Positions 178 through 64,000 of a stretch of DNA of 64,000 nt are shown here, one piece after another. The stretch is from a virus. The notes under the pieces are model-generated. The model did not search any database. It had not been told where the DNA came from and worked only from the letters and a program-made list of their open reading frames with translations. Within the stretch, counting starts at the first letter, position 1. Each line of letters starts with the position of its first letter. The stretch lies in the IMG/VR virus record IMGVR_UViG_3300025280_004467, positions 6,875 through 70,874 of that record; one strand, given 5' to 3'. The position numbers and the translations under genes were made by a program.

Positions 178-238
178 GGGACAACCTCAATTTCTTGCTA
201 TATACATGTATTATCACAAAAGAGGAGAAATCCACAAT

Positions 239-469: not shown

Positions 470-478
470 TTATTTAAT

Positions 479-5035: not shown

Positions 5036-5036
5036 A

Positions 5037-10914: not shown

Positions 10915-10928
10915 AAACAATTAAGAAG

Positions 10929-11687: not shown

Positions 11688-11689
11688 AA

Positions 11690-12664: not shown

Positions 12665-12674
12665 CTTATATAAT

Positions 12675-29500: not shown

Positions 29501-32500
29501 TATGTCCTCGCCCGGGGGAAATGGCCAAGCTAAAAGCCGACAATGCCGAACCCCTTCCACACTGGATGTACGGAGAATATGTAAGAATAGCTTCGGCAAT
29601 GAATTATAAAACATTTCCCCCAGCGGTAAATTGGAACGACATGACCGACGCGGGTTGGTGGTTCCCCTACCTAGGCGGCGCCGGTCTCGCGGGTGAGGTG
29701 TCCACGGTGAAACATAATAAATATTTTCATGGCTGGGCAGAATCGGGAATGGAGGTGATTCCAAACATGTTTGATCCCGCGGGCATGTTGCAACCTCCGT
29801 CTCCTAACTACTTACTTAATTTTACCCAAGAAGAATTAGATGATCTTTTTAGAATCGCTTTTAGATATTACGCAAGATATACATACAATTATAATCTAGG
29901 TTCTACGAGTGCTAATAATACTGAATGGGGTTGGGGAAATCCAAAATCGGAATCCTCGATATTAAGGCCAAAATCTTTGCCCGGAAATGAAGATTTTGAT
30001 AAAGTTGTATTTTATGGCTATTCTTCTTTTCTTATGGACCCGGTTGATTTAAAAGATGAAGATGTGGCAAGTTATCTAGATGATGTTGATTTTAGATGCG
30101 GCCACCGTGGCCCAGGCCCAACCCCAACAGGACATTCTAGCGGAAATGAGTATGATAACCATTTAAATTGGTCAGAATTACTAAGTATAATGCAGACTGG
30201 ACGAGTTTATGCAGACATCCCGCCATCTCTAAGCGCGTTCACCACCAATGCTTTGGGTTTGCCTGGTGCGTATCTGGAAACAGGTCAAACGCGTCACGTG
30301 CTCTATATGGGTCCGGAGGGCTTTCCCACCGAGAACGAAGCGGACAAATATGATCTATTTATAGATTCTGATAAAATAATGGAGGAATTAAGTTGGGGCA
30401 TTTATGGAGGAACAGGGTGGAATCTTAGTTCTACAAAAGAGTGTTTATTAAGAATATTTTTGTTTAGATTTATTGGATCTGATATCACAGGAGGAACAAC
30501 TAATTACACGTGGAACGGCGGCCACCGCGAGGTGGGTACCTACCATGCACGCTACACGTGGCTCCAGGACTGGCAAAACGGCGACCCGATACGCCCGGTG
30601 TATTTTGATCCAGCACCCCGCGCCTTCGGCCCAACGATGTTGGAAGGCGCCTTACCATCTGAGTTTTATGATGAATGGGACATAGACGATTATTCAAATC
30701 TTATTGGCGGACACATGGAAAGAGCACTATATTATTATGAATATGGATTAGATTTTCATCCGGGGTATTCCTATTTTCCTTACAACATTTCTGGTCAATT
30801 AAATTTTATATTTAGTGAAAAGAAAAATGATAGCAATTTCGAAGGCCCTTTTCATAGCTTAACTTTGGATGAATTTAAATTTTCAGAATTGGCGGAAGCC
30901 AATTGGGCAACCCCGGGGTTTAGATATGCACTCGGGAGCGGCGGGCTCTCGAGCGACCTGGCGGAGGAAGTTGGAGAACAGCAACCCGTAGCTCAAGATA
31001 CACCATATTATGGCCCTATTATTCATGAGGACGGACCACTTGAAGGTCAAAAAGTTCCCCTTTGGCAAATCATGTCGAAGCCCGAGATGGTGAAAATGTT
31101 GGAGTGCCAAGCATATGAACAATCTATAGCAGGCCAGCTTGATTATGAAGGATTGTTTAATTTTGGCTTGCTGTCTCAGTTAGATAGTGAAGTAACTGTA
31201 ATTGAAGATGAAAATTCTTATTGTATTATTGATCGATATGGATTTATAAGCAGTTTCACCACCACAAAAAGATATGAAGAAAGAGATAGGTTAATAGGCG
31301 TAGAAGTAGATCTTACAATTCCAGAAGACGCAAAAGATTATACGAATGATCAAGCAGGCAGATATAAAAAAATAGTTGATATATTTGCTGACACTGAAAT
31401 AATGGGCCCAGATACAATAATTCCTGGACCAAGTTTATCTCAAACTATAGATAAAAGTTATGCTTTGCAGCCTCAAGTTTTTCAAAAATATTTGATTAAT
31501 AAAATCAAAGATGGGCCCGTAGCAATGAGAGATTATGGAACCCCCAGCACTACAGGTTGGGAACCCGAATCCGGCAAAACTATTTTTCACCATCTTATAA
31601 CTAAGTTGGCCGGCGGCTGGGCCGGTTCAGGAGATCCTCCGCAAGGATGGAATTATGATCCCGTCTCACCATATAATCTATATGCGATTTTATTTAGACA
31701 CGTAATAAAACATATTTCTTCTTTAGCATATGCGCAAAAAAATATCTTAAAAGATTTTTTGGAAAATATAGACATTGCTAAAATGCAATTTTCTTTGGAT
31801 TCAATTAAAAATAAGGCAATAAAAGATTATCAGTCGTTGGTAGATGAATCTGATCCATGGACCGGGCAAAATCTTCCTTCTATAGAGGACCTTATGTTGG
31901 CGGTTGATGACGAAGGCCGCGGCGGCATCGCCGCTAGAGTGCTTATTAAAATTTTAATATTAGAATATTTTACACGAGCAGTAGGAATGACAGTTGTATT
32001 TAATTTGAAAGATAGTATGGAAGACGATATAATAATGAATTTTTTCACAGCAGAAATATCGAACCCGGTGATGCAGTTTTATGCAGATCAAACAACAGAT
32101 CCAAAGGTTCTTTTTGGTTTAATGTTCAAATTAGAAAAGTTAATAAAGACAACTTTGGAAGAAGGAATGGAGGATGTTATTAATTTATTTACAAGTTTAT
32201 ATTCGATTGAAGGATATGATAGTGCTATAGATCAGGTTGTTTTGAAGAATGAACAAATATATGATTTAGCAAAAATGTATAATGAACTTGAAGTTGCTGA
32301 ATTCACAACCGGGCAGCAAACGCCCATGAACAGATTAAGAATATCAGAAGATATTATATCACCATTCACGACGTCTGATCAGATAAGTTCTTTAACATAT
32401 GCTGAACCAAGATTTTCGCACCCTGTGGTGACCTCCCCCGACGACCAAGGCTGGGTAACGACCTGGCACACTTATGAAAATGAGGGCTTTATTTTAGAAA

Positions 32501-38861: not shown

Positions 38862-41800
38862 ATGAGCATCAAAGATCTTTTTAAGAAAAATCAAGAAGCT
38901 ACTCAAATTTTAAAAAGCGATTCTATTGCTAATATATCCGAAGATGCTGAATCAAAGGACTTCGTTCGAGAAAAGATAGAGAGCAAAGAAAGGTTTATTC
39001 CTCAATTTGATTTTAATGATCCAAAAAACTTTGCAAGATTTGGTCTCGCAGAAGAATATTATGAACAATCAATTAAGAGGGTTTATAACACATATCCATA
39101 TGATGGTTCTCGTTATGAGATAGAAGAGTGGCACAATAGTTCTTCATTTTTTGATGAATATATATTTGATAATGAATATCCAAGAAGAACTGGTTATGTC
39201 ATTTTTGGCGACGATTGGGGAGACAAAGAAGAATTACAAAATGGTTATGGCGCGCCAGCTACTGCCTCATATGAATATATTTTAATTAAAGGCGGCCCAA
39301 ATAAAGATCCAGACAACACAGCTTTAAAAGATATATTTCCTTCAAATGACGGTAAAGCAAATTTATTTAAAACTGATCAAAATAGAGAATGTAATTTAAA
39401 AATTGAAGGAATGGATGGAAATACTGTTGAATTTTGGATGAAAAAGGAAGCGTTTGATACTTCCGGCAAAACTCAAAAAGAAGTAATCTTAGATGTTTAT
39501 TCAACTTCTTCTATTTCTTCTAGTTCTGATTACGGCAGATTCAGAGTTGAAATGTACGGGGATACGTCGTCTGATGCCGCCGCATCATTGGTCAACGCTA
39601 TTGACGTCACCGGCGTAGGCAACGATCACGCATTTACGCTAACATCTCCTACTGCGATGGGAGGCGACGCCGTCGCCTATACATTTAAATTCGTGCATGG
39701 TCTCAATGAAGTTAATGGCGGCGCCGCGGGAAATGTCTACTACATTTCTCGCCACTCTGACGCCGGCGGCACAATCACACTGACTACCGCCCAACGCGCC
39801 ACCGCTTTGGCTAATGCTATTAATGGATTACCGAGCCCGTATGCCGCTTTCAGCGACGGCAACGTGGGTTCTATTAATTCTGTCGATCTCAAAATTACGG
39901 CGGACGCTAGCGATGGAGACGGAACTATCGATCTGACCTTCGATCTTGTTGGGGGTATTGGAAACGAACATGCAAATGTGCTAGCAGCCACAAATGGATT
40001 TACGGGATCTAAAATTCTTGAAACCGCTTTTACAGGCGGCGCCGATAAAATCGGACCATTTCTTATGACTTACATGTCGGGAACGGATGGGATTGCAACA
40101 GCTTCTGTTGGTACCGGCGTTACACCTTCTACAATTGCTGATAACAAATGGCACCATTATGCAGTTTCAGTAAGAAATGACGATCAAAAGTTGCGGATGA
40201 GGTTATATGTCGATGGAGAGTTTAATCATCAAGTTCATACTGGTTCTTCAATTGGGTATGTAAGCTCATCTTTGATTGGTACAATCGGAGCATTAGCATA
40301 TAAGCCATCTTCATCTATCGATCCAGAAGGCGGAACCACAGAAAATGATGATGACACCTTACAACCCACGAGAGGTTGGGGCAAATTGTCTGCCTCTTTG
40401 GACGAATTTAGATATTGGAAACAAGAGAGAAACGCACAACAAATTGGTAGAAAATGGTTTACAAATATTTATGGTGGTTCAAATACTGATCTTTCTAATA
40501 CTCAACTTGGTGTTTATTATAAGTTTAATGAAGGTATAACTGGAACTTCAAGTCTTGATGAAATGGTATTAGATTATTCTGGAAGAACTTCAAATGGAAC
40601 TTGGGTTGGCTATGACTCTGCAAATTCTGGTTCGTATAGAAGTACAGGATCTGCAATTGATGAAGGGTATTTATCAGGTTCGGAATTTAAAGATCCGATT
40701 ATCCGTTCAGTCCATGGAGATGTTCAAGACAAACTAACAAAATTAACAAAGAAAGGCAGGCTTCACGATTTAAAAAATAACTCATCAATTTACAATAGCG
40801 TTCCGGAGTGGATAAGGTCAGACGACCAGCTATCTGGAAAACATCTTGTTAAATTAACTCAAATAATTTCAAGCTATTTTGATACTTTAGCTCTTCAGAT
40901 AAAGTTTCTTCCAAGATTAAAAAATCCCGTTTATCCAAGCAGCAGCTATAAAGCTATTCCTTTTGCTGATCAGCTTTTGGAAAATCATGGTTTATTAGTG
41001 CCAGAATTATTTACTGATTCTACTATTTTAGAACAATTTGCTCAACAAAATGAAATAAAAGAATTTGATATGGATCTACGAGAAGTAAAGAATTTAATTT
41101 ATAAAAACATTTATAACAATCTTTCATACATTTACAAATCAAAGGGAACAGAAAAATCTTTTAGAAATCTTATTCGTTGTTTTGGGATTGATGACGAGAT
41201 TATTAAAATTAATATTTATGGCGACAATTCAATATATGAAATTACAGGAAATTATCGCCACACAGTGACAAAAAAGAACTATTTAGATTTGAACTCTGCA
41301 AATAGAAATAGTTCAGTTGTTTATCAATATTTGGAAAGTTCCAATACAAGCTCTGTTTCCTTTATAACAAGTAGTTATGATAGTTTTAGTGGCTCTGCCA
41401 GAACTTTCGAAGCTGAAGTTATTTTTCCGGAAAGAATAAATCCGAGAGTAACAAATTATGAATTTACAGATTTGTCTTCTTCTTTATTCGGGCTCCACAC
41501 AGCCGGCACAGAAGAAAATGTTTTAACATGGCCAACGCCAGTTGCAAATGCAGATCAAGATATAAGAATCTATGCAGTAAGGGAAAAGAGTGGAGGCAAA
41601 AACGTTCATTTTAAATTAGAATCAACATTTCTTGGAACTTTCGAAGATGGGAACACTTATTTGACTTCCTCCTTGTATGATGATGTTTACAATAATGAAA
41701 AGTGGAATTTTGCTATCAGATTTAAAAGAGATATTCATCCATTGGCGACAGGCGTTACTAGTTCTGGGCCTAACGGCGATATCAATCCTTGCAATGACAC

Positions 41801-44800
41801 CTCAGGAAGTATTGAGTTTTACGGCGTCAACGTTGTTCAGGATTATGTAAAAAATGAATTTTTAGTTACTTCATCGATTGCACTAGACAAGTTCAATGAT
41901 TTGGTATCGTCAGCAAAAAGAATTTATGCAGGTGCTCATCGACAAGATTTCGGTACAACTGTTCTTCAAAAATCAGATGTTAAAATTGGTTCTGTTAGAT
42001 TTTGGTTGGACGATATTCCAAATGATATTATCAGAGAGCACGCATATGATGTTGAAAATTATGGAACAGAGCATCCTTATAGGAATTCTTTCCTTTTTCA
42101 AGGCCCGGATAAACTCGCTGGACTCGATGAACCATATTCGGGATCAATATATATTCCACAAGCTGAAACTCTTGCTTTGCATTGGAATTTTGCAACATTA
42201 ACTGGTTCTGATGATTCTGGAGAATTTGTTGTCATGGACGCGTCTTCCGGTTCTGTCTCCTCCAGAAATGGCATTCAGGTTAGATATGGGGACAATGAAG
42301 GCGTTGGGACACCTTTAGCGAGAACTCTTAAAAGACAACATACAGGAAAAGGTCAATATTTTCCAACAAATAGTTCAAAAGTTGTTGACAAAGTGTATGT
42401 TCCAAATGCAAGATTACAACCACCAGAAATTATTGCTAGTTCAAACATGATTGAAGGGAGAACTAGAGATGACAGATTGTTAACAAGAAACAGCAGACCC
42501 ATTACTCATTTTATTGGAATTGAAAAAAGCCCATATCAATCTGTGACAGAGGAAATGCTTAAAATTTTCGCAACATTAACAGACTTCAATAATTTGATCG
42601 GAGAACCTGTAAGTACATATCGTCCAAATTATAAACAAATGGACAAATTGAAACAGATGTTTTTTGAAAGAATCGACAATGTTCCGGATGTTGAAAAATA
42701 TATTGATTATTATAAATGGATTGATAATGCAGTTGATGTGATAATTCATCAACTAATGCCAATGTCTGCTAATACGTCTGAAAATTTAAGTACAATGATT
42801 GAAAGCCATGTATTAGAAAGAAACAAATTTAGACATAAATATCCATTTTTTAATTCAGCATATGCGAATTGGGAGCCGGAAAGCTCAACTACAAGTCAAT
42901 TTCAGAATGCACCTCAAAACCCCGCCGCGCATCGTTATAATGGCAATTCTTCAGAAATATCTCTTTTGGAAGAAAATGCTTATGAATCAGTTACTGAGGC
43001 TACAGTTTTAAACAATTTTGCTCTAAGTCCAATGAACACTAGAAAAGGTATTTTGTGGTGGCAAAATAGAGCAGAGAGGGATAAAACCGATGAGATTTCG
43101 TCAGGAGATGCCACTGTAGATAAACAAAGAGAAATATATAGAAAAATTATTACGTCAGCAGTTGCTTTTTCGGGTTCATCTTATAAAGATGCTTCCGTCG
43201 CGCAAGTATATCGTTTACGTACTGGGTTACAATTAGATGACGAAAGTCACAAGAAACATTCTAATTCTTATTCAAGAAGTGTTTTAAAACCTTTTTCGTC
43301 AACTTCGAGATTAAGGACAACGGCCAGCAATGTGGTCGCTTCCGAATCTACTGAATTATACGGATTTAGAGCAGATTATGATTTTGAGTCAGAACCGGTT
43401 CCGGGCTTACCATCAGGGAAAAAGAGAAAACTTAATTTTGCTGTCGAGAATGTAGACGACGGAAAAATATTAAAACACAATATTGCTGCACCTTTTAGCA
43501 TTTACACTAGTAGTGCCGGCCGCATTATAACCAATATTCATAATGATTCAGCAGCCACACTACAGGGCCCGTTCACGGAAAAATATGTTGGAGGCCTTCA
43601 GTATAGACATATTCAAATTAATTCAGGTAGTGAATTAGATACCAAATATACAAGACCGCAAGGGTTTAAGTTGATTGTAAGTGATGAATCTGATTTAAAT
43701 AATAATGCCACTGCAACAATTACCATCACGGATTACACCGAACTCAATAGCACCGACAAGGTTAATCTGGTTGCTACGGACGGCACTAACTATAACTTTA
43801 CTCAGGGCGACCAAAGTTCGGTCAATGGTACATGGGAGGCCACAACTTCAAATAACCAAACTGCGACCAACCTAATGAATGTCATCAATACTTCAAGTGG
43901 ACCAGCCGGAACCAGATTCACCGCTACGGTAAATGGAGCTGTAGTTACGGTTACTCAAGCTACAGGCGGAACCGACGGCAATACAACTGTTACTCTTACA
44001 GATACTGGAACTGCAGGGATGTCTAAAACAGACTTCACCGGTGGTGGAGAAGAAGCAAAATTATTCAGAAGCCCCATAATAGGAACAATGCTTAACTATG
44101 CTCCTCCAGATCTAGATTCAAATCTTACATTAGATACTGAATTGCCTCGTGCAATGTTCTATAGAGACGAGACAGCAAAAAGACCAATTAATATTAGAAA
44201 TATAAAAAGTGCTTCATATGGAATTGGTAATTACAGAAAAAATTATGAAGTTATTTTAACAAGTGGAAGATCGTCTAATAGCAAATATAATGTCACAATT
44301 ACAGGAGCAGTTTCATCTTCTGTAGTAGCTAGTGATTTTCCAGATCTTAAAGAATTTGCTCTTCCTGAGAGAGCAAAAAATGAATCAGTAATTGTTAATA
44401 GATTTTCAGCTCCAGGCGGCCCAGAAGTTATGTCAAGAGGTTTTCTTGATACAGCTGCTGAAGAGTATTCAGTATATAATGCTTTACCTTATAGAAATCT
44501 CGCCATTAGACAGCCTTATCAAACATTGTTAAAGAGGTATACTTCACAGTTTGGTGAAGATAGTGTTTTTGGAGCGGGAAGTGGCTCCTCTCATAAAGTT
44601 CATAGAAATACAAGATATAGATTGGAGCTGTCAGGGGATACCGTTATTACAGGAACTGTAAGAGATAATGGGTTTGTTACTCGCCCAATACCACAAAGTG
44701 ATTTGCAATATGCTTGGATTACCGCTTCTGCCTATCAAGTTTCTGGTGGCTTAGTACAAAATGCGCAGCTGCCTTTTGGATATGAACAGCCAAATATTAA

Positions 44801-47800
44801 ACTTGGCGGCGCTTCGAATGATATTCAATTTGTTTCTAGTGCGGCAGGCATTATAAACAAGACTTCTGATCGCGATGGTATACCTGTGGATTTTATTGGA
44901 TTAAACATAACATATGTTGATGATGTGGACTCAGATAATAATTTGATTTTTCCTTTAGATGGTACAGGAGATAATCCTGTCTTTGGTGATCAGCTTATTG
45001 CTCTTGATCAAATTGATATGTCAGCGGATGGAACATATGCAACGCCGGATATAGCAGCTGTAAATATATATCGTAACGGAGCTTATGGCTGGCCCAGCTG
45101 GAAACAAATTAGAAATGAGCAACATAGAATAACTCGTTTTCAAAGAAAAAATAATACATATAATTTTTATGAAAACACTCAGCCAAAAATTATTAACGAA
45201 GTCAACAACAATGATGGGATTACAGGGTTTAAAGATAACTCTCAGCTCAAACAATATAGAATTCCTGCAATTACCACTAAATTTAAGCCATTAACAACGA
45301 CAATGTTTGATAATATAAAAACTGCTTTTACTTTTAAAGAAGCTGTGTACATCAAAGCTTCTTATACTTATAGCAATTTAAATTCTTATTTATTAATTGA
45401 TGAAGGTCTTCTGGATACCAAACATGCAGTTATAAAACAAAAACCAGAAATTAATGAAATTATTACAAATATTAATAATATTAAAGTGAAGGACATCGAA
45501 TATAAAGAAGTTATATATCCAAGAGCTGAATTTACTTCTTTGGCTAAAACTAGAGGAAGACTGGCTTATAATGAATTTTTTGGCACAGGAAGTAATGGAT
45601 ATGATCGAATAAATCATAGAACGTTCTGGCGCTCTCGTGCCGAAGATCGACAGAGAACTAATTTTATAGCTTCAAATTCTTTAGGAACTGAATTAAGCTC
45701 ATATTTTTATACTGCTGATGGAGGTCTATCTGACCAAGACGGTCCTTATTTTTCCGGCGATTGGGTACATCAGCTTCACCCAATGGCTTTAAGTGTTTGG
45801 CCTTTGGACTCATTTCCCGGGGGATATATGTCTGGGGGTTTTGTAGGTCACAAGTATGATGAAAGGAGGTCCAATATTGGAGCAGCTGGAGAACTTTATA
45901 CCCAAGTAGAGGGAGGTTTAGTTTCAAGTTCCGACGCCGGCACCCACCCCGCCGCGCCAGGGCAATGTTTTTTCTTTTATCAACATTATGGATGGTTTGG
46001 AGTATCTGATACGCAAACATGGCCTTCTGAATATTATATTTCAGCATCCGGACCAGGAAAAAACAAACCCGGTTTTGCGGCAGATACTGACGCTTCAGCA
46101 GTCCATTTACATCATTTCAAACCACAATATAGTGCTAGTGCTTTATCTAGTTTGACTCCGTGGTATGATTCATACGAAGCATATGCTGATAACATCAGGC
46201 CATTGGGGAAAGATTATTCTATTGTTCCTGAATTTAGAGTCTCTGAACATATGGAATACTATCTTAAGAAAGGATTTTTAACCAAAAATAATAAATATTT
46301 ATCTCTAGTAGGAGCTTCAAAGAAGTCACGAAGTTCAGGTTCGTCTGAAGTGTTATTTACTGCGGTGGATCGCGGCTTCACAGGAATCAACGTGGACCAA
46401 AATGAGCTTCAGTTCTCAGTAGAAGAACACTTGTCATCTAGCGCAGCTAGTGAAAACGAACCTTCAATTGACGATTTTTATAAAATTTATTCACATTCTG
46501 ATTTTCTTGATTCGTTTAATTTGATTAAAAGTAAAAATCTAGATAAAAATGTTTCACAGATCACATTAAAATGCAAAGGGATCAAAAAACTTCTTCCATA
46601 TCAAGGATTTTACCCAGTGTTAAGATGTGTACAGCTTGGTTCTATGCTTTCTCAATCTTTTAGCCCTTATCTGACGGCTTCTTCTGATTCTGCCCTATCT
46701 AAAGAAAGTCAAGTGCAAGCTTTAATTCAGCCCTTCTTTTCTCCCGGTATTATGTATAACACAATTAAATCAGGAATTGCAGTTGATTGGCCAGTAATTA
46801 CTGGATCTACGAAAATAGGTGATACAGCTGCTTCATTTGGTTATTTAGGTTATTTGACAACTGGTAGTAGTTTAGTTGATAAACAGTATCACAATCGTCG
46901 TTTCCCATTCGAATCTTTAGTTTCTCCGGAGAGATATATTCCTGCTGCTCCCGTTCCAGGAGCGGAACAAGGCGCCACCGGAGTAGAAGCGAGAGTTAAT
47001 ATGGCAATTAGCCCGGCATATAGATCTGGTTCGCAGTCAGATGAAGAAAATGTATATGATTTTGAAGGAAATGCACCACATTTTATTTGGACAGGGGAAC
47101 ATGATGATAAATATAATTTAGCTATGCATAACTTTTTAGGTGAAATTCCTAAATTCTTTTTAGAAGATGAACGTCTAACAACGTTTGCGTCTAAGCAAGG
47201 TCCGTTCACTATGGTTTCCGGAACAACATATTATATGGATGTTGTTTTGGAAAAAACATCAGAATTTATTCAATATGAAGGGCCCCATATCGATATGAAG
47301 GAAACTAATTCAGAGACTGGATTATTGAGATATTCTTCTGGCAGCGCAAGAGGTTTACATTATGGGCCGGCCTGCGACGTTCTCGGGGAAAAGGATCAAA
47401 CAACTGATGGTCTAACTGCGACCCACAATGCCAACTACAATTGGCTATCAAATATTCAAGATCCTGCTTTTGCTCCGTATACTCCACCATATTTTTATGG
47501 ATCATCTGTTGCAAGAATTACTTTTTCTCCTCACAAACATAGAGAGCTGCTTCCATCTGAAGGTCCTCAAACTTTTACAATTGCTGAGATATTGGATGGT
47601 GCAAGAGTTGAAACAATTTATGAGCCAAATAGGACAGCATCTTATGCTCAATCCATTAATTCTACGAAAGATTCTACGGATGGTACCCATTTAGAAGGTT
47701 ATATTAGGGTTCCTGAGGAGAAAAGTTTAGCTGGTGTTAGTAAAATGAAAATTGATTCTTCAATTAATTTATTTGGCAAAACAAAAGTTAAAGAAGTCAC

Positions 47801-48908
47801 CTATGAAACAGGTTTAGGCCCGAACGGCAAATATGCTCCGGTATTAATAAAAGATTCTTCTGAAGAAACGTTTGATGTTTGGACAATCAGCACAAAATTT
47901 GAATGCCCAACGTTAAACTTTTCCGGTAACGCGAAGGGTCATTTTACAAGAGGGATGTGGTTTGGTTATGGCGAAGAGCCGCCACCAGATCAAGGAATTT
48001 TCTTAAGAATTAGGGAAAGCTTTCCGGAAGAATTAAATAAAACAAAAACAATGAAAAACCTCACAGCAAATCCTCTCACTACCGTTGGACTATTGGAGAC
48101 AGGTTCTCTTATACAAGTTTGCGGGTTTACTGAAAACACTACCAAAACTAAAAGAAGAATTGGAAGAATTGCAAATCAAAAAGTTATTTCAGAAGCTATA
48201 ATTGCTATTCCCTTTAGGGCAAAATCAAAAGAATCCGTAAGAGGATTTTTTGATATTCCAAAAGATTATGTTGATCTTGCTTTGGATCGCGCTTCTAAGA
48301 AAACTGTTAAAAAATATCAAAAGAAAGGTATTGAGGTTGGAGAATCGATTATAGACATGGTTGAAAAAATGCAGAAATACGTAATTCCCCCTCAACATGA
48401 TTTTGTTATCAACAAAAACGTTAGACCTTTTGCAATGTATGTGTTTGAATTTGAACATACTTTTGACAAGGAGGATTTATCTAATATATGGCAAAACTTA
48501 ATGCCAAAAATTGCTAGAAATCCGGAGCTGGACGAAGTGGAGATTACTCACCCGTGCGGCGTTAAGGGAGAATTTTTTGAAGATGGAGAAATACCTTTTG
48601 ATATTAAATGGATGATTTATAAAGTCAAAAAGAGGGCTGAAAAAAGTTATTTTAACGTTACTGCTGATTCTACTGATGATGATAGATTTGAATTTGAATT
48701 CAATGTTGACTCAGAAAAAAAGACTCCTGACTATAGTTATAATTGGCCATACGATTTCTTTTCTTTGGTAGAGTTGGCGAAGGTCGAAGCAAATATTAAA
48801 TTGTCAGCTCTAACAATAGAACAACAAAAAAAATGCGAGGAAAAGGCCAAAAAAGATAACAAAGAGTGCGAAGATTACGGTTATTTAGATGGAGGCAAGA
48901 ATAATTAA
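38862..48908 (+). CDS. Giant (3348 aa) baseplate/tail protein with LamG-like domains and a gp7/tail-I-like segment
   Basis: TVEFWMKK...WHHYAVS...LYVDG...LDEFRYW (LamG); YIYKSKGTEKSFRNLIRCFG (baseplate wedge-like). Confidence 0.75.
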   Translation: MSIKDLFKKNQEATQILKSDSIANISEDAESKDFVREKIESKERFIPQFDFNDPKNFARFGLAEEYYEQSIKRVYNTYPYDGSRYEIEEWHNSSSFFDEYIFDNEYPRRTGYVIFGDDWGDKEELQNGYGAPATASYEYILIKGGPNKDPDNTALKDIFPSNDGKANLFKTDQNRECNLKIEGMDGNTVEFWMKKEAFDTSGKTQKEVILDVYSTSSISSSSDYGRFRVEMYGDTSSDAAASLVNAIDVTGVGNDHAFTLTSPTAMGGDAVAYTFKFVHGLNEVNGGAAGNVYYISRHSDAGGTITLTTAQRATALANAINGLPSPYAAFSDGNVGSINSVDLKITADASDGDGTIDLTFDLVGGIGNEHANVLAATNGFTGSKILETAFTGGADKIGPFLMTYMSGTDGIATASVGTGVTPSTIADNKWHHYAVSVRNDDQKLRMRLYVDGEFNHQVHTGSSIGYVSSSLIGTIGALAYKPSSSIDPEGGTTENDDDTLQPTRGWGKLSASLDEFRYWKQERNAQQIGRKWFTNIYGGSNTDLSNTQLGVYYKFNEGITGTSSLDEMVLDYSGRTSNGTWVGYDSANSGSYRSTGSAIDEGYLSGSEFKDPIIRSVHGDVQDKLTKLTKKGRLHDLKNNSSIYNSVPEWIRSDDQLSGKHLVKLTQIISSYFDTLALQIKFLPRLKNPVYPSSSYKAIPFADQLLENHGLLVPELFTDSTILEQFAQQNEIKEFDMDLREVKNLIYKNIYNNLSYIYKSKGTEKSFRNLIRCFGIDDEIIKINIYGDNSIYEITGNYRHTVTKKNYLDLNSANRNSSVVYQYLESSNTSSVSFITSSYDSFSGSARTFEAEVIFPERINPRVTNYEFTDLSSSLFGLHTAGTEENVLTWPTPVANADQDIRIYAVREKSGGKNVHFKLESTFLGTFEDGNTYLTSSLYDDVYNNEKWNFAIRFKRDIHPLATGVTSSGPNGDINPCNDTSGSIEFYGVNVVQDYVKNEFLVTSSIALDKFNDLVSSAKRIYAGAHRQDFGTTVLQKSDVKIGSVRFWLDDIPNDIIREHAYDVENYGTEHPYRNSFLFQGPDKLAGLDEPYSGSIYIPQAETLALHWNFATLTGSDDSGEFVVMDASSGSVSSRNGIQVRYGDNEGVGTPLARTLKRQHTGKGQYFPTNSSKVVDKVYVPNARLQPPEIIASSNMIEGRTRDDRLLTRNSRPITHFIGIEKSPYQSVTEEMLKIFATLTDFNNLIGEPVSTYRPNYKQMDKLKQMFFERIDNVPDVEKYIDYYKWIDNAVDVIIHQLMPMSANTSENLSTMIESHVLERNKFRHKYPFFNSAYANWEPESSTTSQFQNAPQNPAAHRYNGNSSEISLLEENAYESVTEATVLNNFALSPMNTRKGILWWQNRAERDKTDEISSGDATVDKQREIYRKIITSAVAFSGSSYKDASVAQVYRLRTGLQLDDESHKKHSNSYSRSVLKPFSSTSRLRTTASNVVASESTELYGFRADYDFESEPVPGLPSGKKRKLNFAVENVDDGKILKHNIAAPFSIYTSSAGRIITNIHNDSAATLQGPFTEKYVGGLQYRHIQINSGSELDTKYTRPQGFKLIVSDESDLNNNATATITITDYTELNSTDKVNLVATDGTNYNFTQGDQSSVNGTWEATTSNNQTATNLMNVINTSSGPAGTRFTATVNGAVVTVTQATGGTDGNTTVTLTDTGTAGMSKTDFTGGGEEAKLFRSPIIGTMLNYAPPDLDSNLTLDTELPRAMFYRDETAKRPINIRNIKSASYGIGNYRKNYEVILTSGRSSNSKYNVTITGAVSSSVVASDFPDLKEFALPERAKNESVIVNRFSAPGGPEVMSRGFLDTAAEEYSVYNALPYRNLAIRQPYQTLLKRYTSQFGEDSVFGAGSGSSHKVHRNTRYRLELSGDTVITGTVRDNGFVTRPIPQSDLQYAWITASAYQVSGGLVQNAQLPFGYEQPNIKLGGASNDIQFVSSAAGIINKTSDRDGIPVDFIGLNITYVDDVDSDNNLIFPLDGTGDNPVFGDQLIALDQIDMSADGTYATPDIAAVNIYRNGAYGWPSWKQIRNEQHRITRFQRKNNTYNFYENTQPKIINEVNNNDGITGFKDNSQLKQYRIPAITTKFKPLTTTMFDNIKTAFTFKEAVYIKASYTYSNLNSYLLIDEGLLDTKHAVIKQKPEINEIITNINNIKVKDIEYKEVIYPRAEFTSLAKTRGRLAYNEFFGTGSNGYDRINHRTFWRSRAEDRQRTNFIASNSLGTELSSYFYTADGGLSDQDGPYFSGDWVHQLHPMALSVWPLDSFPGGYMSGGFVGHKYDERRSNIGAAGELYTQVEGGLVSSSDAGTHPAAPGQCFFFYQHYGWFGVSDTQTWPSEYYISASGPGKNKPGFAADTDASAVHLHHFKPQYSASALSSLTPWYDSYEAYADNIRPLGKDYSIVPEFRVSEHMEYYLKKGFLTKNNKYLSLVGASKKSRSSGSSEVLFTAVDRGFTGINVDQNELQFSVEEHLSSSAASENEPSIDDFYKIYSHSDFLDSFNLIKSKNLDKNVSQITLKCKGIKKLLPYQGFYPVLRCVQLGSMLSQSFSPYLTASSDSALSKESQVQALIQPFFSPGIMYNTIKSGIAVDWPVITGSTKIGDTAASFGYLGYLTTGSSLVDKQYHNRRFPFESLVSPERYIPAAPVPGAEQGATGVEARVNMAISPAYRSGSQSDEENVYDFEGNAPHFIWTGEHDDKYNLAMHNFLGEIPKFFLEDERLTTFASKQGPFTMVSGTTYYMDVVLEKTSEFIQYEGPHIDMKETNSETGLLRYSSGSARGLHYGPACDVLGEKDQTTDGLTATHNANYNWLSNIQDPAFAPYTPPYFYGSSVARITFSPHKHRELLPSEGPQTFTIAEILDGARVETIYEPNRTASYAQSINSTKDSTDGTHLEGYIRVPEEKSLAGVSKMKIDSSINLFGKTKVKEVTYETGLGPNGKYAPVLIKDSSEETFDVWTISTKFECPTLNFSGNAKGHFTRGMWFGYGEEPPPDQGIFLRIRESFPEELNKTKTMKNLTANPLTTVGLLETGSLIQVCGFTENTTKTKRRIGRIANQKVISEAIIAIPFRAKSKESVRGFFDIPKDYVDLALDRASKKTVKKYQKKGIEVGESIIDMVEKMQKYVIPPQHDFVINKNVRPFAMYVFEFEHTFDKEDLSNIWQNLMPKIARNPELDEVEITHPCGVKGEFFEDGEIPFDIKWMIYKVKKRAEKSYFNVTADSTDDDRFEFEFNVDSEKKTPDYSYNWPYDFFSLVELAKVEANIKLSALTIEQQKKCEEKAKKDNKECEDYGYLDGGKNN

Positions 48909-58764: not shown

Positions 58765-61167
58765 ATGCCGTATTATAAATTTAAGAAAAATGACCTATTC
58801 TATAATGTCATAAAGACTCATCCAGTAAGTGAATTTTCTATATACGATGGAAAAGTTTATTACAACAACACACCACAAATAAGTGGTGCATTTACTGCTA
58901 GCGTTCCCGGTGTCCCTCCAGGAAATATTAGCCTATATGAATTAAATGTTGATAGAAATAAAGATGATCATCTATTTGTTCCAAAAACAATAGAAAACGA
59001 TAATAATAACGATCCTGAAAATCCGAATAACACTACAGCAGAAAATCCTACAAACACTGATGGTGTTAAAAGTTTAATCTTTCCATATGTTGAAAAAAAT
59101 TCAGATCAAAATTTAAAATTCAAGCATATTACAGAGACCGAATATAATGCTCATTATGAGTGGGGGCAGATGATTACTGGTAGTTATCCATTATCTGCCA
59201 GTATCAAAAGAAATTTTTATGATAGCCAAGAAGATGCTAATGTTTTTGACCAACCAGAAGCTACAAAACCAGCGAACGCAGCTGAAGCTTGGAATCAAGC
59301 ATTTCCCCCTGACCCTATTGAACTTGTTACAAAAGGAGACGCCGGCGCCCTTTATACAGCAAGACCTCGTATTCAAGCTTTGAGAAATACTCTTAATTAT
59401 TATTCTCCCATGAGCCGTCATTATGTATTTTCTTCTTCCATTGATGGCTGGAGAAAGGATACACAAGAATTAAACCTTATTAGTATTCCATCAATATATT
59501 ATGGGAATTGTATCAAAAGAGGTTCTGTAGATTTAAAATTCTACGTAAAGGGAAAGTTAGTTGGACGAACACGCGACATAAAAAAGAATGGTGAATTAAT
59601 TGATATAACTACCGTTCCCTTTAGTAGACGTTCTGTGTTTTTTGATGGCTTTGCGAAAACCTCTGCCGTGTCCAATGTTTTTATATCGTCGAACGAGCCG
59701 AATTTTGCTGATTTTATTAAGGTTCCCTCGGTGGATAATTCGTTATCTGGACTATCTTCTCTTACGGTTTCAATGTGGGTCAACGCGCTGAAGCTTCCAG
59801 GTGCGAATTTGGCTTGGTACACTCTCATTCACACAAGTGACAATTGGAAGTTGTGGATCGATCCAATCCCCAACGGCGCCGGAGGTGCTAGGATCTATTT
59901 CGAAACCTTAAAAACCGACAACGTGAACGTTAACGGAAGATGGAAGGTCGCAGGAGAACTTTCACTTGGATCTTGGCACCATATAGCTGTTTCATATGAC
60001 GGCGCGCTAGCGGCCAACAATCCCGTAGTTTATGTTGACGGGGTATCAAAGTCAATAACGGAAACAGTCACTCCTTCAGCTGGAATAAGTGACAACGTTG
60101 GTCCAACACTGATTGGACATCGTTTTAGAGGACACATCGATGAGGTCAGTATTTGGAATGACAATTTAGACGAAGACGAAGTTGGGGAAATATATAACAG
60201 TGGCAAGGCTTGTAACTTAGTTACCCATTCTAAATATAGCAATTTAGTTTCATGGTGGAGGATGGGCGAGGTCACAGACACAGAGGCTGCACAATTAGAG
60301 GAAAACCCAACAACTGGCCCGACTTCTAATTTAATAGGAGATCCGCCATTATCAACAAATTTTATAATTCCAGATGAAAAAGGTTCAAATACAGCGTACA
60401 TGATAGGGTTTGCAGATTGGAACCAAAAAGCCCCTCCGCCGGACTACGAGTTTATGATATCGGGAATTACTGGGGTTGCCGCTCCTTCTTGTTTAACTTC
60501 TTCTTTAGTAGGGCTGGACGAGGGCGAAGATCATCCAATTGCAGGAGTTGTTCTTTATAATGAAGGTTTTATAATTTTAACAGGAAGTTGGAATCTCGAT
60601 GAAAATACTCAAAGTGATTATAAAAATGATGGAATTGCAAATGATTATCCAAGATGGACTTATTTTGGAGCCAGATTAACTAGTGGTTCAGGAGATGCCG
60701 GAAATCCTTCGCTATCCATCGGTGACCCAACAGTTGTTGGTGATCGTAGTCATGATTTATCAATGGAAGCAAAAGATAATTTGAGGACAGGCGATCACTC
60801 TTTAGATGATGCCTTCTTCCATATTTCGCTTTCTGGTACAAATTATGTGCCAACCAGAACAATGCTAGCTCATGCTCCAAAGGGAAGGTTGAATCATTCC
60901 AATAATCCAACTTATGTTACGTTTAATTCAGCTAACTTTGAATCAACCGGCGCTCTTGGATATTTTGAAGGACACAAAACACCGATTAAAAATATAGTTT
61001 CAAGTTCTCATAAAAATTATAGTGCTAGTTTTGATAAACATACTTTTGTTTCAAAGATTGGAATCTATGATGAAAATAGGAATCTTATCGGAATAAGCAA
61101 ATTAGCAACTCCAGTTCGAAAACGAGAAATTGATAATCTAACATTTAAAATTAAATTAGATTTTTAG
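58765..61167 (+). CDS. Paralog of 57590-58738 carrying an inserted LamG/concanavalin-like domain
   Basis: IKRGS, GVVLYNEG, NHSNNPTY, SKIGIYDENRNLIGISKL; LamG LTVSMWV...WHHIAVSY...VYVDG...IDEVSIW. Confidence 0.75.
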   Translation: MPYYKFKKNDLFYNVIKTHPVSEFSIYDGKVYYNNTPQISGAFTASVPGVPPGNISLYELNVDRNKDDHLFVPKTIENDNNNDPENPNNTTAENPTNTDGVKSLIFPYVEKNSDQNLKFKHITETEYNAHYEWGQMITGSYPLSASIKRNFYDSQEDANVFDQPEATKPANAAEAWNQAFPPDPIELVTKGDAGALYTARPRIQALRNTLNYYSPMSRHYVFSSSIDGWRKDTQELNLISIPSIYYGNCIKRGSVDLKFYVKGKLVGRTRDIKKNGELIDITTVPFSRRSVFFDGFAKTSAVSNVFISSNEPNFADFIKVPSVDNSLSGLSSLTVSMWVNALKLPGANLAWYTLIHTSDNWKLWIDPIPNGAGGARIYFETLKTDNVNVNGRWKVAGELSLGSWHHIAVSYDGALAANNPVVYVDGVSKSITETVTPSAGISDNVGPTLIGHRFRGHIDEVSIWNDNLDEDEVGEIYNSGKACNLVTHSKYSNLVSWWRMGEVTDTEAAQLEENPTTGPTSNLIGDPPLSTNFIIPDEKGSNTAYMIGFADWNQKAPPPDYEFMISGITGVAAPSCLTSSLVGLDEGEDHPIAGVVLYNEGFIILTGSWNLDENTQSDYKNDGIANDYPRWTYFGARLTSGSGDAGNPSLSIGDPTVVGDRSHDLSMEAKDNLRTGDHSLDDAFFHISLSGTNYVPTRTMLAHAPKGRLNHSNNPTYVTFNSANFESTGALGYFEGHKTPIKNIVSSSHKNYSASFDKHTFVSKIGIYDENRNLIGISKLATPVRKREIDNLTFKIKLDF

Positions 61168-61179
61168 TACAATGTAATA

Positions 61180-61719
61180 GTGTTTCTTGGTTTAGACATA
61201 TCGACATCAATAACTGGTGCGACTGTTCTTGATAACAATAGCAAATTATTATATTGCGAAGCTTGGGATATGAGAAACAAAAATCATTTCCCGGATTTAT
61301 TTAATAAGGCAAATCTAGTAAAGGGGCGCTTATTAGATTTAAGTATACAATTTCATATTAAATATATTTTTATCGAACAATCTTTGCAAGCATTTAGGCC
61401 CGGATTTTCTTCAGCAAAGACTTTATTGACATTAGCAAAGTTCAATGGTATAATTTCATATATCTGTCAAAATGATATGGGAATTGAACCAGAATATATT
61501 GGAGCATCGACTGCAAGAAAATCAAATGGAATTAAAATTCCTCGTGGAGAAAAAGCAAAAAAAGTTGTTCTTCAATATGTTCTTGACAATGAACCAAATT
61601 TTGTGGTAGAATATACAAAACAAGGAAACCCGAAACCAGGATCATATGATCGGACAGACAGTTTAATTATCGCGAGAGCAGGTTATAATTTATGGAAGGA
61701 GAGAAACTCCAACTCCTAA
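61180..61719 (+). CDS. RuvC-like Holliday junction resolvase (RNase H fold)
   Basis: FLGLDISTSITG, IFIEQ, LAKFNGI, ARK, YDRTDSLIIA. Confidence 0.8.
   Translation: MFLGLDISTSITGATVLDNNSKLLYCEAWDMRNKNHFPDLFNKANLVKGRLLDLSIQFHIKYIFIEQSLQAFRPGFSSAKTLLTLAKFNGIISYICQNDMGIEPEYIGASTARKSNGIKIPRGEKAKKVVLQYVLDNEPNFVVEYTKQGNPKPGSYDRTDSLIIARAGYNLWKERNSNS
61583..61612 (+). promoter_or_regulatory. Sigma70-type promoter TTGACA-N18-TAGAAT with extended -10 TG, inside the resolvase CDS upstream of primase
   Basis: TTGACA 61583-61588; TG-g-TAGAAT 61604-61612. Confidence 0.6.
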
Positions 61720-62633
61720 AAAGCATTTTTGGAAAGTTTCATCATTCAAATGATGAATGCCTTTTTCATTGTCCAAAGTGTAAACATCACAAGCGCAAAT
61801 TCTCTATTAATTTAGAGAAGGGTGCATTTAAATGTTGGATTTGTGATTATTATGGCCGCTCTCTTCGTCGTCTTATAAGAAAATATAGCGACTTCCGCAC
61901 ACTCCAAAAGTGGGATAAATTAAATGGTCGAGAAGATATAACAAAATTTGATGATTTATTCTTAGAAGAAACTGAAATTGAACCATTGCAAAGATTTGAT
62001 TTGCCACAAGAATTTGTATCTCTTACAAATGAAGATCTTCCTTTGGCAATGACCCCTGCTTTAAATTATTTGGAGAACAGAGGAATATCAAAAAAAGATA
62101 TTATTCGTTGGAAAATTGGATGCTGCATGCGAGGCGAATATAACAATAGAGTCATTATTCCTTCTTTTGATGAAGAAGGTTATGTAAATTATTTTGTTGC
62201 AAGAACATTTAATGGAGCTTGGAAAAAATATTTAAACCCTCAAGCATCAAAGAATATAATATTTAATGAGCTTTATTTAGATTTCGATCAAGATTTAATA
62301 ATTGTTGAGGGCATCTTTGATGCAATGATTGCTGGTCCAAACTCTGTTCCAATTCTTGGTTCTACTTTGCGCGAGAATTCCAAGTTGTTCCAGATGCTTG
62401 TAAAAAATGATACACCAGTTTATATTGGTTTGGATGTTGATGCCGAAAACAAGTCAAAAAGAATAATAAAAGATTTATTAAATTATGGAATTGAAGTGTA
62501 TAAAATTGCCACATCCGGTTATGAAGATATTGGTTCAATGACAAAAGAAGAATTTTTAAATAGAAAAAACGAAGCGGTATTATGTGATCCTAACGACTAC
62601 TTATTGTACGAAGCTTTAGGAGAAATAAAATAA
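61692..62633 (+). CDS. DNA primase (Zn finger + TOPRIM)
   Basis: CPKC...CWIC; YLENRGI; RVIIP; YFVAR; KYLNP; IVEGIFDA; LDVDA; DIG. Confidence 0.9.
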   Translation: MEGEKLQLLKSIFGKFHHSNDECLFHCPKCKHHKRKFSINLEKGAFKCWICDYYGRSLRRLIRKYSDFRTLQKWDKLNGREDITKFDDLFLEETEIEPLQRFDLPQEFVSLTNEDLPLAMTPALNYLENRGISKKDIIRWKIGCCMRGEYNNRVIIPSFDEEGYVNYFVARTFNGAWKKYLNPQASKNIIFNELYLDFDQDLIIVEGIFDAMIAGPNSVPILGSTLRENSKLFQMLVKNDTPVYIGLDVDAENKSKRIIKDLLNYGIEVYKIATSGYEDIGSMTKEEFLNRKNEAVLCDPNDYLLYEALGEIK

Positions 62634-62782
62634 TGAAAGGATTATTGCATCGATTAGCAAACCTTTTTAATCAAAATCACTGCTGCTGTTGTTGTGGTTG
62701 TTGCGCTTGCAAGAATTGCCCGGGGAAATGTAACAAACTCAAGGTAGTGCGTCGAAGGGGTCGACCAAGGAAAAATAAATGA
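62633..62782 (+). CDS. 49-aa Cys-rich microprotein with C-terminal AT-hook (not in ORF track)
   Basis: MKGLLHRLANLFNQNHCCCCCGCCACKNCPGKCNKLKVVRRRGRPRKNK; SD AGGAG at 62618; TAATG and ATGA overlaps with both neighbours. Confidence 0.75.
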   Translation: MKGLLHRLANLFNQNHCCCCCGCCACKNCPGKCNKLKVVRRRGRPRKNK

Positions 62783-64000
62783 AACTAACCAAATCACAAC
62801 TTAAACAAATTATTCAAGAAGAAGCCAATAAAGAGTTAACCAGATCACAACTAGAGAAAATTATTAAAGAAGAAACTGTTAATGAATTCGGCGCCGAGCT
62901 TGGAGGATACATCGGCAGTGGATCACCGGGAGGCCACGCCCGAACAATGGCAAGAGCCGCCGAAGCTGAACGCACCGAAGATTGGACAAGCGACATGAAG
63001 CGAATTGCAAAGGTGTTCGAAGCTGCAAGATTGGGAAAGCTGGTTGCTAGATTGATTAATAAAAAAGATGAATTTATGGACTTAATTGCGTATTTTGTTG
63101 GTGAGTTAGTAGAACAAGATAAAAAAAGAGAAATTCAAATAATGCGTAAGGTTTTAACGGATTTGATGAAATCTATACAAGCCGGCGAAGGAGAAGGCGA
63201 GAAGAAAAAGGAAGAACCCGCCGCAACCCCGCCTGAGCCAGAAAAATCAGCTGAACCTGAAGCAACAACTGCGACAACCGCCCCGGTTGATCCCATGCAT
63301 CGTCAGGCTCAAAAATTTAGAAAAAAACATGGATTAGTGACCATGGATCCTTCGAAGTTGACTGGTTTAGAAGAGATTATTCGAGAAGAAACAATCAAAA
63401 TTTTGATGCAAGAAGTTGAACCTGGAGGATTTAAAAAAGGCATTAAGAGTGTTGGCGACTTTTTACGAAAAGGCGTTGACAAGCTCACTATGAGGGGCGC
63501 TATCCCCCGAAGACTCCTTTCCCCGGATGTGGGTAAAATACGGAAGCGTTTTGAACAAACAAAATTGAAAGCAATGATTAAACAATATATTGATCGACCG
63601 GATGAATTTCACCACTTAATGATATATCTCATGAGTTTTATTGAAGATATTTCTTATAGAACCAAAGCTGGATATTTTAGAGAATTTATTGCACGCTGGC
63701 AAGAAAGAGTAGAAAAAGAAGCTACTGCAGCAGGCGTTCCACCAGAAGCTGCCGCTGCAGCGGCTGGAGGCGAAGCTGCAGCAACAGACGTTCCGCCAGA
63801 GGCTGGGGGTGAAGTTGCAGCCACGACCGCCACCACCGCCCGCGCGGCAAAAGCTGCAGCAGCAACTGCGACAACCGCCCCGGTTGATCCCATGCATCGT
63901 CAGGCTCAAAAAATAGGTCCTAAACCAATTGTTTATCCTCCGGTGGATATAGGCAAGCCCAAGACACGTATGAAGCAGATAGGTGGCCCTGAAAAGGCCC
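62779..64000 (+). CDS. Repeat-module protein, open at window end (not in ORF track)
   Basis: Manual translation: MKLTKSQLKQIIQEE...LEKIIKEE...LEEIIREE; no stop before 64000; two homologous modules with Ala/Pro/Glu linkers. Confidence 0.8.
   Translation, partial: MKLTKSQLKQIIQEEANKELTRSQLEKIIKEETVNEFGAELGGYIGSGSPGGHARTMARAAEAERTEDWTSDMKRIAKVFEAARLGKLVARLINKKDEFMDLIAYFVGELVEQDKKREIQIMRKVLTDLMKSIQAGEGEGEKKKEEPAATPPEPEKSAEPEATTATTAPVDPMHRQAQKFRKKHGLVTMDPSKLTGLEEIIREETIKILMQEVEPGGFKKGIKSVGDFLRKGVDKLTMRGAIPRRLLSPDVGKIRKRFEQTKLKAMIKQYIDRPDEFHHLMIYLMSFIEDISYRTKAGYFREFIARWQERVEKEATAAGVPPEAAAAAAGGEAAATDVPPEAGGEVAATTATTARAAKAAAATATTAPVDPMHRQAQKIGPKPIVYPPVDIGKPKTRMKQIGGPEKA
63266..63912 (+). repeat. 50-nt perfect direct repeat (63266-63315 and 63863-63912)
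   Basis: caactgcgacaaccgccccggttgatcccatgcatcgtcaggctcaaaaa occurs twice, 597 nt apart and in frame (TATTAPVDPMHRQAQK). Confidence 0.92.

Follow-up and report, generated by a model that had tools for sequence, protein, structure and literature searches.

A family of ten-cysteine microproteins encoded by marine phages, with an AT-hook-type tail in one clade

Introduction

A 64,000-nucleotide stretch of viral DNA (positions 6,875 to 70,874 of the IMG/VR record IMGVR_UViG_3300025280_004467; the whole stretch is called the window hereafter) carries, directly behind a DnaG-type primase gene, a small open reading frame (ORF) whose product joins a dense cluster of cysteines to a basic tail. Is such a short frame a gene at all, do cluster and tail belong together, and what could the product do for a phage? 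An earlier note had described the ORF at 62633..62782, its ten cysteines, the string RRRGRPRK, a good Shine-Dalgarno (SD) sequence and the start and stop overlaps with the genes on either side, and all of these were found as described. Translation of the ORF gives a peptide of 49 residues, MKGLLHRLANLFNQNHCCCCCGCCACKNCPGKCNKLKVVRRRGRPRKNK, with ten cysteines between residues 17 and 33 and a basic tail comprising residues 34-49 (net charge +9). Cysteine thus makes up 10 of 49 residues, compared to 0.89% (181/20303) over the 38 other ORFs of the window. One base is common to the ATG and the primase stop codon TAA (62631-62633); at its other end the ORF, stopping with TGA, runs 4 bases into the next gene (ATG at 62779). 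As set out below, we conclude from sequence comparisons that the ORF is a genuine protein-coding gene and that its product, the microprotein, is one of a large family from marine phages, not yet filed anywhere, whose members have 31-49 aa.

Recurrence of the microprotein in marine phages

Viral contigs of IMG/VR were searched with a degenerate DNA pattern for the cysteine block (H-C5-G-C2-x-C). The pattern matched 84 contigs, and in 83 of them the match is a small ORF of the microprotein family; the sole exception is a 152-aa frame (L191). The 80 loci listed for this pattern lie on 80 different contigs. Because the pattern itself fixes the cysteine block, we also made a reverse search with the N-terminus only (ATG-K-x-x-L-H-[KR]-L-x-N-L-F-N), in which the cysteine block was left free. 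This yielded 47 contigs, and all 47 encode an ORF of 31-49 aa with a cysteine cluster right after His16. The exact block H-C5-G-C2-x-C is present in 42 of the 47 copies, and the other five differ from it by one or few substitutions. The same small ORF was therefore recovered from either end, which bears out the proposal of a conserved microprotein. An earlier loose TGY pattern had been swamped by microsatellite-like frames, most of its 120 loci being long poly-Cys frames without starts, and the stricter patterns were used in its place.

In metagenome contigs at least 120 loci were found, out of an estimated 490 or so stretches, and from these 120 loci came 106 distinct full-length proteins. 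When the viral set is added, the count of distinct canonical proteins rises to 165, a figure to be read as at least 165, since its metagenome part comes from 120 of the roughly 490 stretches. A search led by the primase gene returned 41 related viral loci, five of which (L001, L004, L005, L010 and L011) have a family ORF within 500 nt downstream that shares the N-terminus and cysteine block of the window copy. On the contig of L006 the family ORF lies one gene further downstream (L185). No family ORF was found at L002, L003 and L007, whose primase is 85% identical to that of the window.

When the genomes of 185,579 prokaryote species (one genome each) were searched with the cysteine-block pattern, eight contigs matched and two of these carry true family members. 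Both lie on contigs of about 100 kb from metagenome-assembled genomes, labelled Halobacteriovorax and Ca. Pelagibacter. The Halobacteriovorax-labelled contig coincides in length and position with an IMG/VR viral contig, and we interpret it as a phage contig that ended up in the bin; the host is not fixed by these labels.

Protein libraries hold very few of these sequences. A family profile run against 1.84 billion representative proteins gave 8 matches only, and gene callers therefore mostly miss the family. A word-indexed protein search returned a single match (P0001). A tblastn search of 50,697 phage records with the microprotein (E up to 10) was negative, and the ESM Atlas gave no usable match. 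Three fused forms of 114-155 aa (P0003, P0006 and P0008) look like over-extended or chimeric gene calls and were not accepted as fusions.

The conserved helix and ten-cysteine block

To describe the family we used an alignment of 74 rows (A1), consisting of the window copy, 72 distinct loci and L004; L215, with a mis-assigned start, and L186, with a GTG start, were omitted. The consensus is MKxxLHRLxNLFNxxHCCCCCGCCxCxxCxGxC, in which H16, C18-21, G22, C23-24 and C26 are invariant, and members are usually 31-34 aa long. The family core is a predicted amphipathic helix, MKxxLH[KR]LxNLFNxxH, followed by CCCCC-G-CC-x-C and two further cysteines. The latter come in two main C-terminal endings, ...C-x3-C-C and ...C-x2-C-x3-C, each of which brings the total to ten. 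Indeed, exactly ten cysteines are present in 156 of the 165 distinct proteins (eleven in 8, nine in 1), and exactly two histidines in 70 of the 74 aligned members.

The 12 residues preceding the His-Cys block have a mean helical hydrophobic moment of 0.59 (z 1.85 vs shuffles). AF2, given the 74-row alignment, predicted a helix at residues 2-12 only, and this at low confidence (mean pLDDT 54.6). This lack of a predicted fold beyond the helix would fit a metal-cluster peptide modelled in its apo form, which is no proof of one. A predicted homodimer with four Zn scored 0.09 against a mark of 0.42, and was counted neither for nor against metal binding.

Selection was studied at codon level in 70 distinct 78-nt versions, drawn from 78 members with 15 codons before His16. 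Both TGC and TGT are used at every cysteine position, mostly at about 1:1, and all four glycine codons are in use at Gly22. Leu8 is kept in 67 of the 70 versions by means of five codons; Leu11 is kept in 63, His6 in 69 and Phe12 in 66. Pairwise synonymous difference is saturated across the family. The ratio pN/pS was 0.35 for codons 2-15 and 0.04 for codons 16-26, so that the dN/dS-type comparison suggested in the earlier note speaks for constraint in both parts. The conservation of codons 1-15 is no ascertainment effect, because these codons lie outside the cysteine-block search pattern.

The signals for translation are conserved as well. A core SD sequence (GGAG, GAGG or AGGA at -18..-4) precedes the start in 63 of the 74 family loci and a weaker one in 8 more; among the three loci without SD, at least L215 has a mis-assigned start. 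Given this conservation of protein, SD and start, the microprotein is very probably translated.

The earlier note had named one outcome that would speak against a gene, namely an ORF that is not conserved or a cysteine run that is only a variable TGY microsatellite. TGY and RCA repeats are indeed common, and most loci of the loose pattern were poly-Cys frames of that kind. However, the length of the run is fixed, the start, SD and stop are conserved, and the flanks of the run are conserved at the protein level. The 165 distinct sequences carry saturated synonymous change, and the contigs of four marine sequencing runs show no base change or indel within 62633-62782 where this region is covered. 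A chance ORF with no function over a microsatellite is thus given next to no weight, and both readings are ruled out within the limits of sequence evidence.

The AT-hook tail of the window clade

The second half of the question concerns the basic tail. When all six frames of the retrieved DNA (2.04 million residues) were scanned for the strict motif [RK]RGRP[RK][RK], it occurred eight times, each time in the tail of a microprotein. The eight matches are spread over five distinct contigs and differ in their Arg, Gly and Pro codons. Eight of the 165 canonical sequences carry the hook; with L004, where Y replaces the first Cys, and P0001 there are ten distinct hook-bearing sequences. In all ten the G-R-P core is present with a preceding Arg and with basic residues on both sides, and every hook-bearing member has the ending ...C-x-G-x-C-N/H.

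In Pfam, AT_hook (PF02178) was the top family for the window peptide (residues 40-49, 12.2 bits, E 0.18, curated cut-off 17.4), the match spanning profile positions 2-11 of 13. AT_hook was also the best family for L217; L004 and L185 gave no AT_hook row. The assignment of RGRP as an AT-hook motif in the earlier note is thus upheld by a tail that was kept across members through synonymous codon changes; the top Pfam hit, although AT_hook, falls below threshold.

The hook-bearing L217 has a family-A DNA polymerase gene on one side and an unannotated gene on the other. Since its neighbourhood has no tblastx match to the window genome, the hook form occurs in at least two genomic contexts. Other members (P0002, P0005 and L252) have basic tails or insertions that are unrelated to the hook. 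The fusion of cysteine block and AT-hook is therefore true of the window copy and rare in the family, in which the conserved unit is the helix with ten cysteines. On the sequence evidence the hook is genuine and under selection, an extra that one clade has added to a unit which normally functions without it.

Cassette behaviour and gene neighbours

We then asked in which surroundings the gene is found. An alignment of primase 3' ends (window 62570-62635; L002-L006 at about 3876-3945) shows conservation of the last codons, of the AGGAG embedded in them and of the ATG that comes next. This ATG opens the microprotein in the window, L004 and L005, and a gene starting MKLTKSQ in L002, L003 and L006. 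Moreover, one marine contig joins position 62586 straight to 62780. Because a conserved socket at the primase end serves differing genes, and because of this direct joint, we regard the microprotein gene as an exact presence/absence cassette.

By Pfam, the upstream gene encodes a DnaG-type primase in 10 of 66 loci, as it does in the window, and primase is the commonest single upstream neighbour. Other upstream neighbours include Peptidase_S77 (the T4 gp21-type prohead protease) and an M50 peptidase, in two loci each, and single cases of Pol III alpha, Pol A, thioredoxin, QueF, baseplate J, tail sheath and others; most of the rest have no Pfam family. It has been suggested in the earlier note that the microprotein is coupled to the primase and may serve it as a Zn or Fe-S donor. 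Its gene does abut the primase gene translationally in the window, primase is its most frequent upstream neighbour, and the primase has a match to the CHC2 zinc ribbon that is weak in the window (Pfam E 0.092) and clearer in relatives. Against this, 56 of the 66 upstream neighbours are other genes, the two genes lie tens of kb apart in four large contigs (L038/L190, L037/L213, L021/L214 and L029/L210), and L002, L003 and L007 have no microprotein gene next to a closely related primase. As the link is this loose and near relatives do without the gene, a dedicated donor or partner of the primase is very improbable, and the coupling does not hold for the family.

On the other side, the start of the downstream gene is no more than 17 nt from the microprotein stop in 61 of the 70 loci; in 34 loci the two overlap. 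Such tight spacing, together with ten Cys codons among only 31-49, could suggest a regulatory leader that senses charged tRNA-Cys or sulfur supply and couples downstream translation, its peptide being functionless. One locus (L224), with a cysteine-synthase-type PALP gene downstream and thioredoxin upstream, would suit a leader. However, many different codons preserve the residues K2, L5, H6, L8, N10, L11, F12, N13, H16 and G22, the cysteines are constant in number and spacing, and the AT-hook tail is under purifying selection. Besides, the downstream genes are heterogeneous, no terminator-like structure was found on the + strand downstream (61000-64000), and most loci have no room for one. 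We therefore consider a leader improbable.

Some individual neighbourhoods are worth recording. In L224 (119-1429) the microprotein gene is flanked by the thioredoxin and PALP genes just mentioned, and L115/L172 have an ORF immediately before it that, judged by eye alone, is IscU-like. As isolated cases, these neighbours give a hint of a link to thiols, sulfur or Fe-S clusters. In L194 (2582-3238, - strand) and L243 (17-250, + strand) the microprotein gene directly follows a Peptidase_S77 gene, and in both the next gene starts MKKAELKKVLKP... and has no Pfam family.

Proposed function

What could a peptide of this kind do? Ten thiols and two imidazoles are kept through two C-terminal layouts, with no predicted fold beyond the helix, and for this reason they look like a ligand set for a defined polynuclear metal-thiolate cluster. 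Ten Cys and two His are of the order used for three- to four-metal clusters. The interpretation we favour, on which we would place an even chance, is a polynuclear metal-thiolate (or Fe-S) micropeptide that in the window clade is tethered by its hook to AT-rich DNA. It draws on the known chemistry of metallothioneins and AT-hooks. The earlier note had also thought of redox sensing, of genome condensation and of anti-silencing; these roles are conjectural, as is metal binding.

In such a peptide, the N-terminal amphipathic helix with its two conserved histidines would provide a surface for docking, pairing or self-association. The ten thiols, with one or two His, would wrap a defined polynuclear metal-thiolate cluster, which might be metallothionein-like (Zn, Cu(I) or Cd) or possibly Fe-S. 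The small sub-clade of the window gained the C-terminal RRRGRPRK hook, through which the metal-loaded peptide would come to lie in the minor groove of AT-rich DNA, that of the phage genome and probably also that of the host. The gene behaves as a self-contained cassette with its own ribosome-binding site that is inserted before various genes, in the window at a point between the primase gene and a gene of the 'MKLTKSQLKQIIKEE' family.

Several observations weigh against a metal-binding, DNA-tethered peptide. The neighbours have no consistent metal theme: 63 of the 68 downstream genes have no Pfam family, and the thioredoxin, cysteine-synthase-like and IscU-like neighbours are single cases. No metallothionein was matched in Pfam (6 members, E up to 10), in NCBIfam (4 members) or in a PDB profile search, nor was a Wbl or other metal-protein family matched in these collections. 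Five consecutive cysteines are unusual for characterised metallothioneins, and adjacent thiols cannot all face one small cluster. The Phe and His of the microprotein are unlike classical metallothioneins as well. As for the hook, its Pfam score lies below the curated cut-off, and as for expression, there was no RNA run among the sequencing runs that contain the stretch.

A short helix followed by a cysteine-rich core is also the layout of a leader and core, so that the product could be the precursor of a modified, secreted or lipid-anchored peptide, either a ribosomally synthesised and post-translationally modified peptide (RiPP) or an S-acylated cysteine string. The latter would recall the palmitoylated proteins of eukaryotes. 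However, no radical-SAM, cyclodehydratase, lanthionine or other maturase gene was seen among 66 upstream and 68 downstream neighbours, and the neighbourhoods are too variable for a dedicated pathway. The consensus has no signal peptide or lipobox, and four members searched in NCBIfam at E up to 10 matched no SCIFF or other precursor. We find a precursor role quite improbable.

If metal is indeed bound by the microprotein, these phages would encode a metallothionein-like or Fe-S family of micropeptides, a kind not found in the open-access literature. The family is abundant in ocean viromes, as judged from the estimated 490 or so metagenome stretches, the 83 IMG/VR contigs and the contigs of 20 marine runs that have the window version. 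Zn, Fe, Cu and reduced sulfur limit growth in the ocean habitat. It is also an example of a strongly selected gene of 31 aa that gene callers have missed nearly everywhere, and its hook-bearing form is a compact natural fusion of a cysteine cluster and a predicted minor-groove reader.

Downstream genes and their repeated N-terminal modules

The gene that follows the microprotein in the window opens with a sequence that is repeated on a massive scale. Its first 45 nt (62779-62823) encode the N-terminal module MKLTKSQLKQIIQEE, which recurs at about 62830-62874, so that the protein has the module twice in tandem, and further on there are Ala/Thr/Pro-rich stretches with a repeated segment ...TTATTAPVDPMHRQAQK... 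In four marine runs the word depth was about 190-3000 over 62786-62812 and about 4-60 alongside, and many contigs from marine runs match 62777-62823 alone and diverge on both sides. A strict pattern for the module found an estimated 520 or so IMG/VR stretches (loci L422 onward), often with two to three copies per contig at a spacing of 240-560 nt. Copies spaced in this way form arrays of small paralogues.

About 49 of 70 downstream genes begin, by reading, with one of three modules of 13-20 aa (a regular expression caught 35). The three modules, MK[IL]TKxQLxxIIKEE, MKxxxENWRKFL.E and MPKFYRQNKK..PRYFLNE, each end in (L/I)-x-E. These endings resemble sites of the T4 prohead protease, and the modules may be capsid-targeting propeptides or recombination sockets. 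According to an excerpt of PMC9026906, an internal protein of T4 is directed to the head by its first 10 residues, and cleavage by the gp21 protease occurs after Glu.

By analogy, the microprotein itself could be a virion-internal peptide. The helix would act like a capsid-targeting sequence, the peptide would be packed and injected with the DNA, and in the window clade the hook would hold it on the DNA; all of this is compatible with metal binding. The frequency of the (L/I)-x-E modules downstream, read against T4 targeting and cleavage as in the excerpt just cited, would agree with this, as would the position of the microprotein gene directly after Peptidase_S77 in L194 and L243 and the basic or AT-hook tails of several members. 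However, the N-terminus of the microprotein has no (L/I)-x-E site and bears no similarity to the modules in its neighbourhood, whose targeting role is itself only presumed. In addition, the operon that holds the window copy behind primase is probably an early one and has sigma-70-like promoters upstream. We regard packaging as unlikely, and return to the metal-thiolate peptide as the preferred interpretation.

The phage and the window

The features of the locus are collected in Table 1.

Table 1. Features at and around the microprotein gene, in window coordinates.
Feature	Position	Strand	Basis and remarks
Sigma-70-like promoter match, 12/12, extended -10 TG	61426..61454	+	Consensus match alone; inside 179-aa gene upstream of primase
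Sigma-70-type promoter match, 11/12, extended -10 TG	61583-61612	+	Consensus match alone; inside 179-aa gene upstream of primase
DnaG-type primase	61692..62633	+	Pfam DNAG_N 9.8e-07; 41 related viral loci; abuts microprotein gene
Shine-Dalgarno AGGAG	62618..62622	+	Inside last primase codons, 10 nt before microprotein ATG
Microprotein gene, 49 codons + stop	62633..62782	+	ATG-started ORF; family membership; protein-level selection
Amphipathic helix (predicted), residues 1-16, MKxxLH[KR]LxNLFNxxH, with His6 and His16	62633..62680	+	A1 consensus, AF2, hydrophobic moment
Ten-cysteine block, residues 16-33, H-CCCCC-G-CC-A-C-KN-C-PGK-C	62678..62731	+	A1 alignment, N-terminus-only pattern search
AT-hook-type tail RRRGRPRK, residues 40-47	62750..62773	+	Motif scan, Pfam
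Downstream gene of 'MKLTKSQLKQIIKEE' family	62779..63999, open at window end	+	ORF

The window covers part of the genome of a marine phage that is myovirus-like and uncultured. The source assembly is a single contig of 70.9 kb, all long ORFs of the window lie on the + strand, and the G+C content of the phage DNA is 29-43%. Twenty marine DNA sequencing runs contain the stretch or part of it. The promoter match at 61426..61454 may serve to transcribe primase, microprotein and next gene together; no terminator-like site was found on the + strand between 61000 and 64000. Rfam gave nothing over the whole window, and 61000-64000 had no blastn match in 50,697 phage records. Among cultured phages the best matches of the window primase are 28-34% identical (Flavobacterium phage immuto, Microcystis phage Mel-JY01 and SPO1-like phages). 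No host was inferred from the primase, because even the best of these is only 34% identical.

Elsewhere the window encodes a gp25-type baseplate wedge protein and PhoH with a PIN domain. Glycosyltransferase genes (3779-8287) are found next to a nonulosonic-acid-type sugar cluster (8284-16753) with two NeuB, a cytidylyltransferase, a Polysacc_synt_2 dehydratase, a DegT aminotransferase, formyltransferase-like genes and PIG-L. A tubulin/FtsZ-like gene (22504-23574) has a Pfam Tubulin match of 1.3e-07, just under the cut-off. No Pfam match was obtained for two giant ORFs, of 2829 aa (26521-35010) and 3348 aa (38862-48908).

Comparison with known systems

At permissive thresholds, none of the members examined had a family match in Pfam, NCBIfam, PHROGs or PDB chains. 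In PHROGs 0 of 74 members matched at a useful E-value, one of them reaching E 0.49. In open-access full text we found no description of the microprotein family, although one may exist elsewhere; the string CCCCCGCC occurred there as DNA sequence only, and nothing relevant on phage metallothioneins was found in the open-access literature.

Like metallothioneins, including the bacterial SmtA/BmtA type, the microprotein is small, has a cysteine content of 20-32% and contains Cys-Cys and Cys-x-Cys motifs. Its conserved His beside the thiols and the absence of a stable predicted fold without metal add to the likeness. It differs in the run of five consecutive cysteines, in the conserved, predicted amphipathic helix with Phe, and in being encoded by phages. 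By analogy the window copy would behave as a metallothionein fused to an AT-hook, while by sequence it belongs to no metallothionein family.

The tail resembles AT-hooks of the HMGA type (PF02178) in its R-G-R-P core with Arg/Lys on both flanks. In contrast to HMGA-type proteins, which have several hooks on a larger protein, the microprotein has a single hook, with predicted binding, on a peptide of 49 aa. A different likeness is that to the internal proteins of T4, which are also encoded by small, hypervariable, cassette-like genes. The neighbours include genes with short conserved N-terminal modules that end in (L/I)-x-E and, in two loci, a gene for a gp21-type protease before the microprotein. 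The microprotein, however, has its own N-terminus with no cleavage motif, and its packaging is purely conjectural.

The nearest known architecture is that of WhiB7. The earlier note did not recognise the combination of a cysteine cluster and an AT-hook in phages, but an excerpt of PMC13013590 provides a precedent: the WhiB7 type of Wbl protein is a [4Fe-4S] factor that carries a characterised AT-hook at its C-terminus, and members of the Wbl family are also present in actinobacteriophages. The order of parts is shared, with a Cys-ligated cluster module followed by a hook that reads AT-rich DNA (both roles putative in the microprotein). The microprotein itself is no Wbl protein. It has no Wbl domain, a different cysteine spacing and half the size or less, and only a small minority of the family has the hook. 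Pfam Whib (PF02467) gave no match at E up to 10, and the four-Cys and family-wide motifs of Wbl proteins are absent from the A1 consensus. The carriers also differ, being uncultured marine myovirus-like phages rather than the actinobacteriophages that carry phage Wbl proteins.

These comparisons allow a broader picture, which we offer tentatively and hold to be rather doubtful as a whole. The strongly conserved deca-cysteine cassette, mobile and carried by many lineages of large marine phages, may encode a viral metallopeptide with a defined Zn, Cu or Fe-S cluster. With this cluster the peptide would change how ocean bacteria short of nutrients manage trace metals or thiols, or else it would enter the cell together with the injected genome. 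For the hook clade, the cluster would be parked on AT-rich DNA, and the microprotein would then be a minimal metal-sensing DNA binder of 49 residues that follows a WhiB7-like logic and evolved independently.

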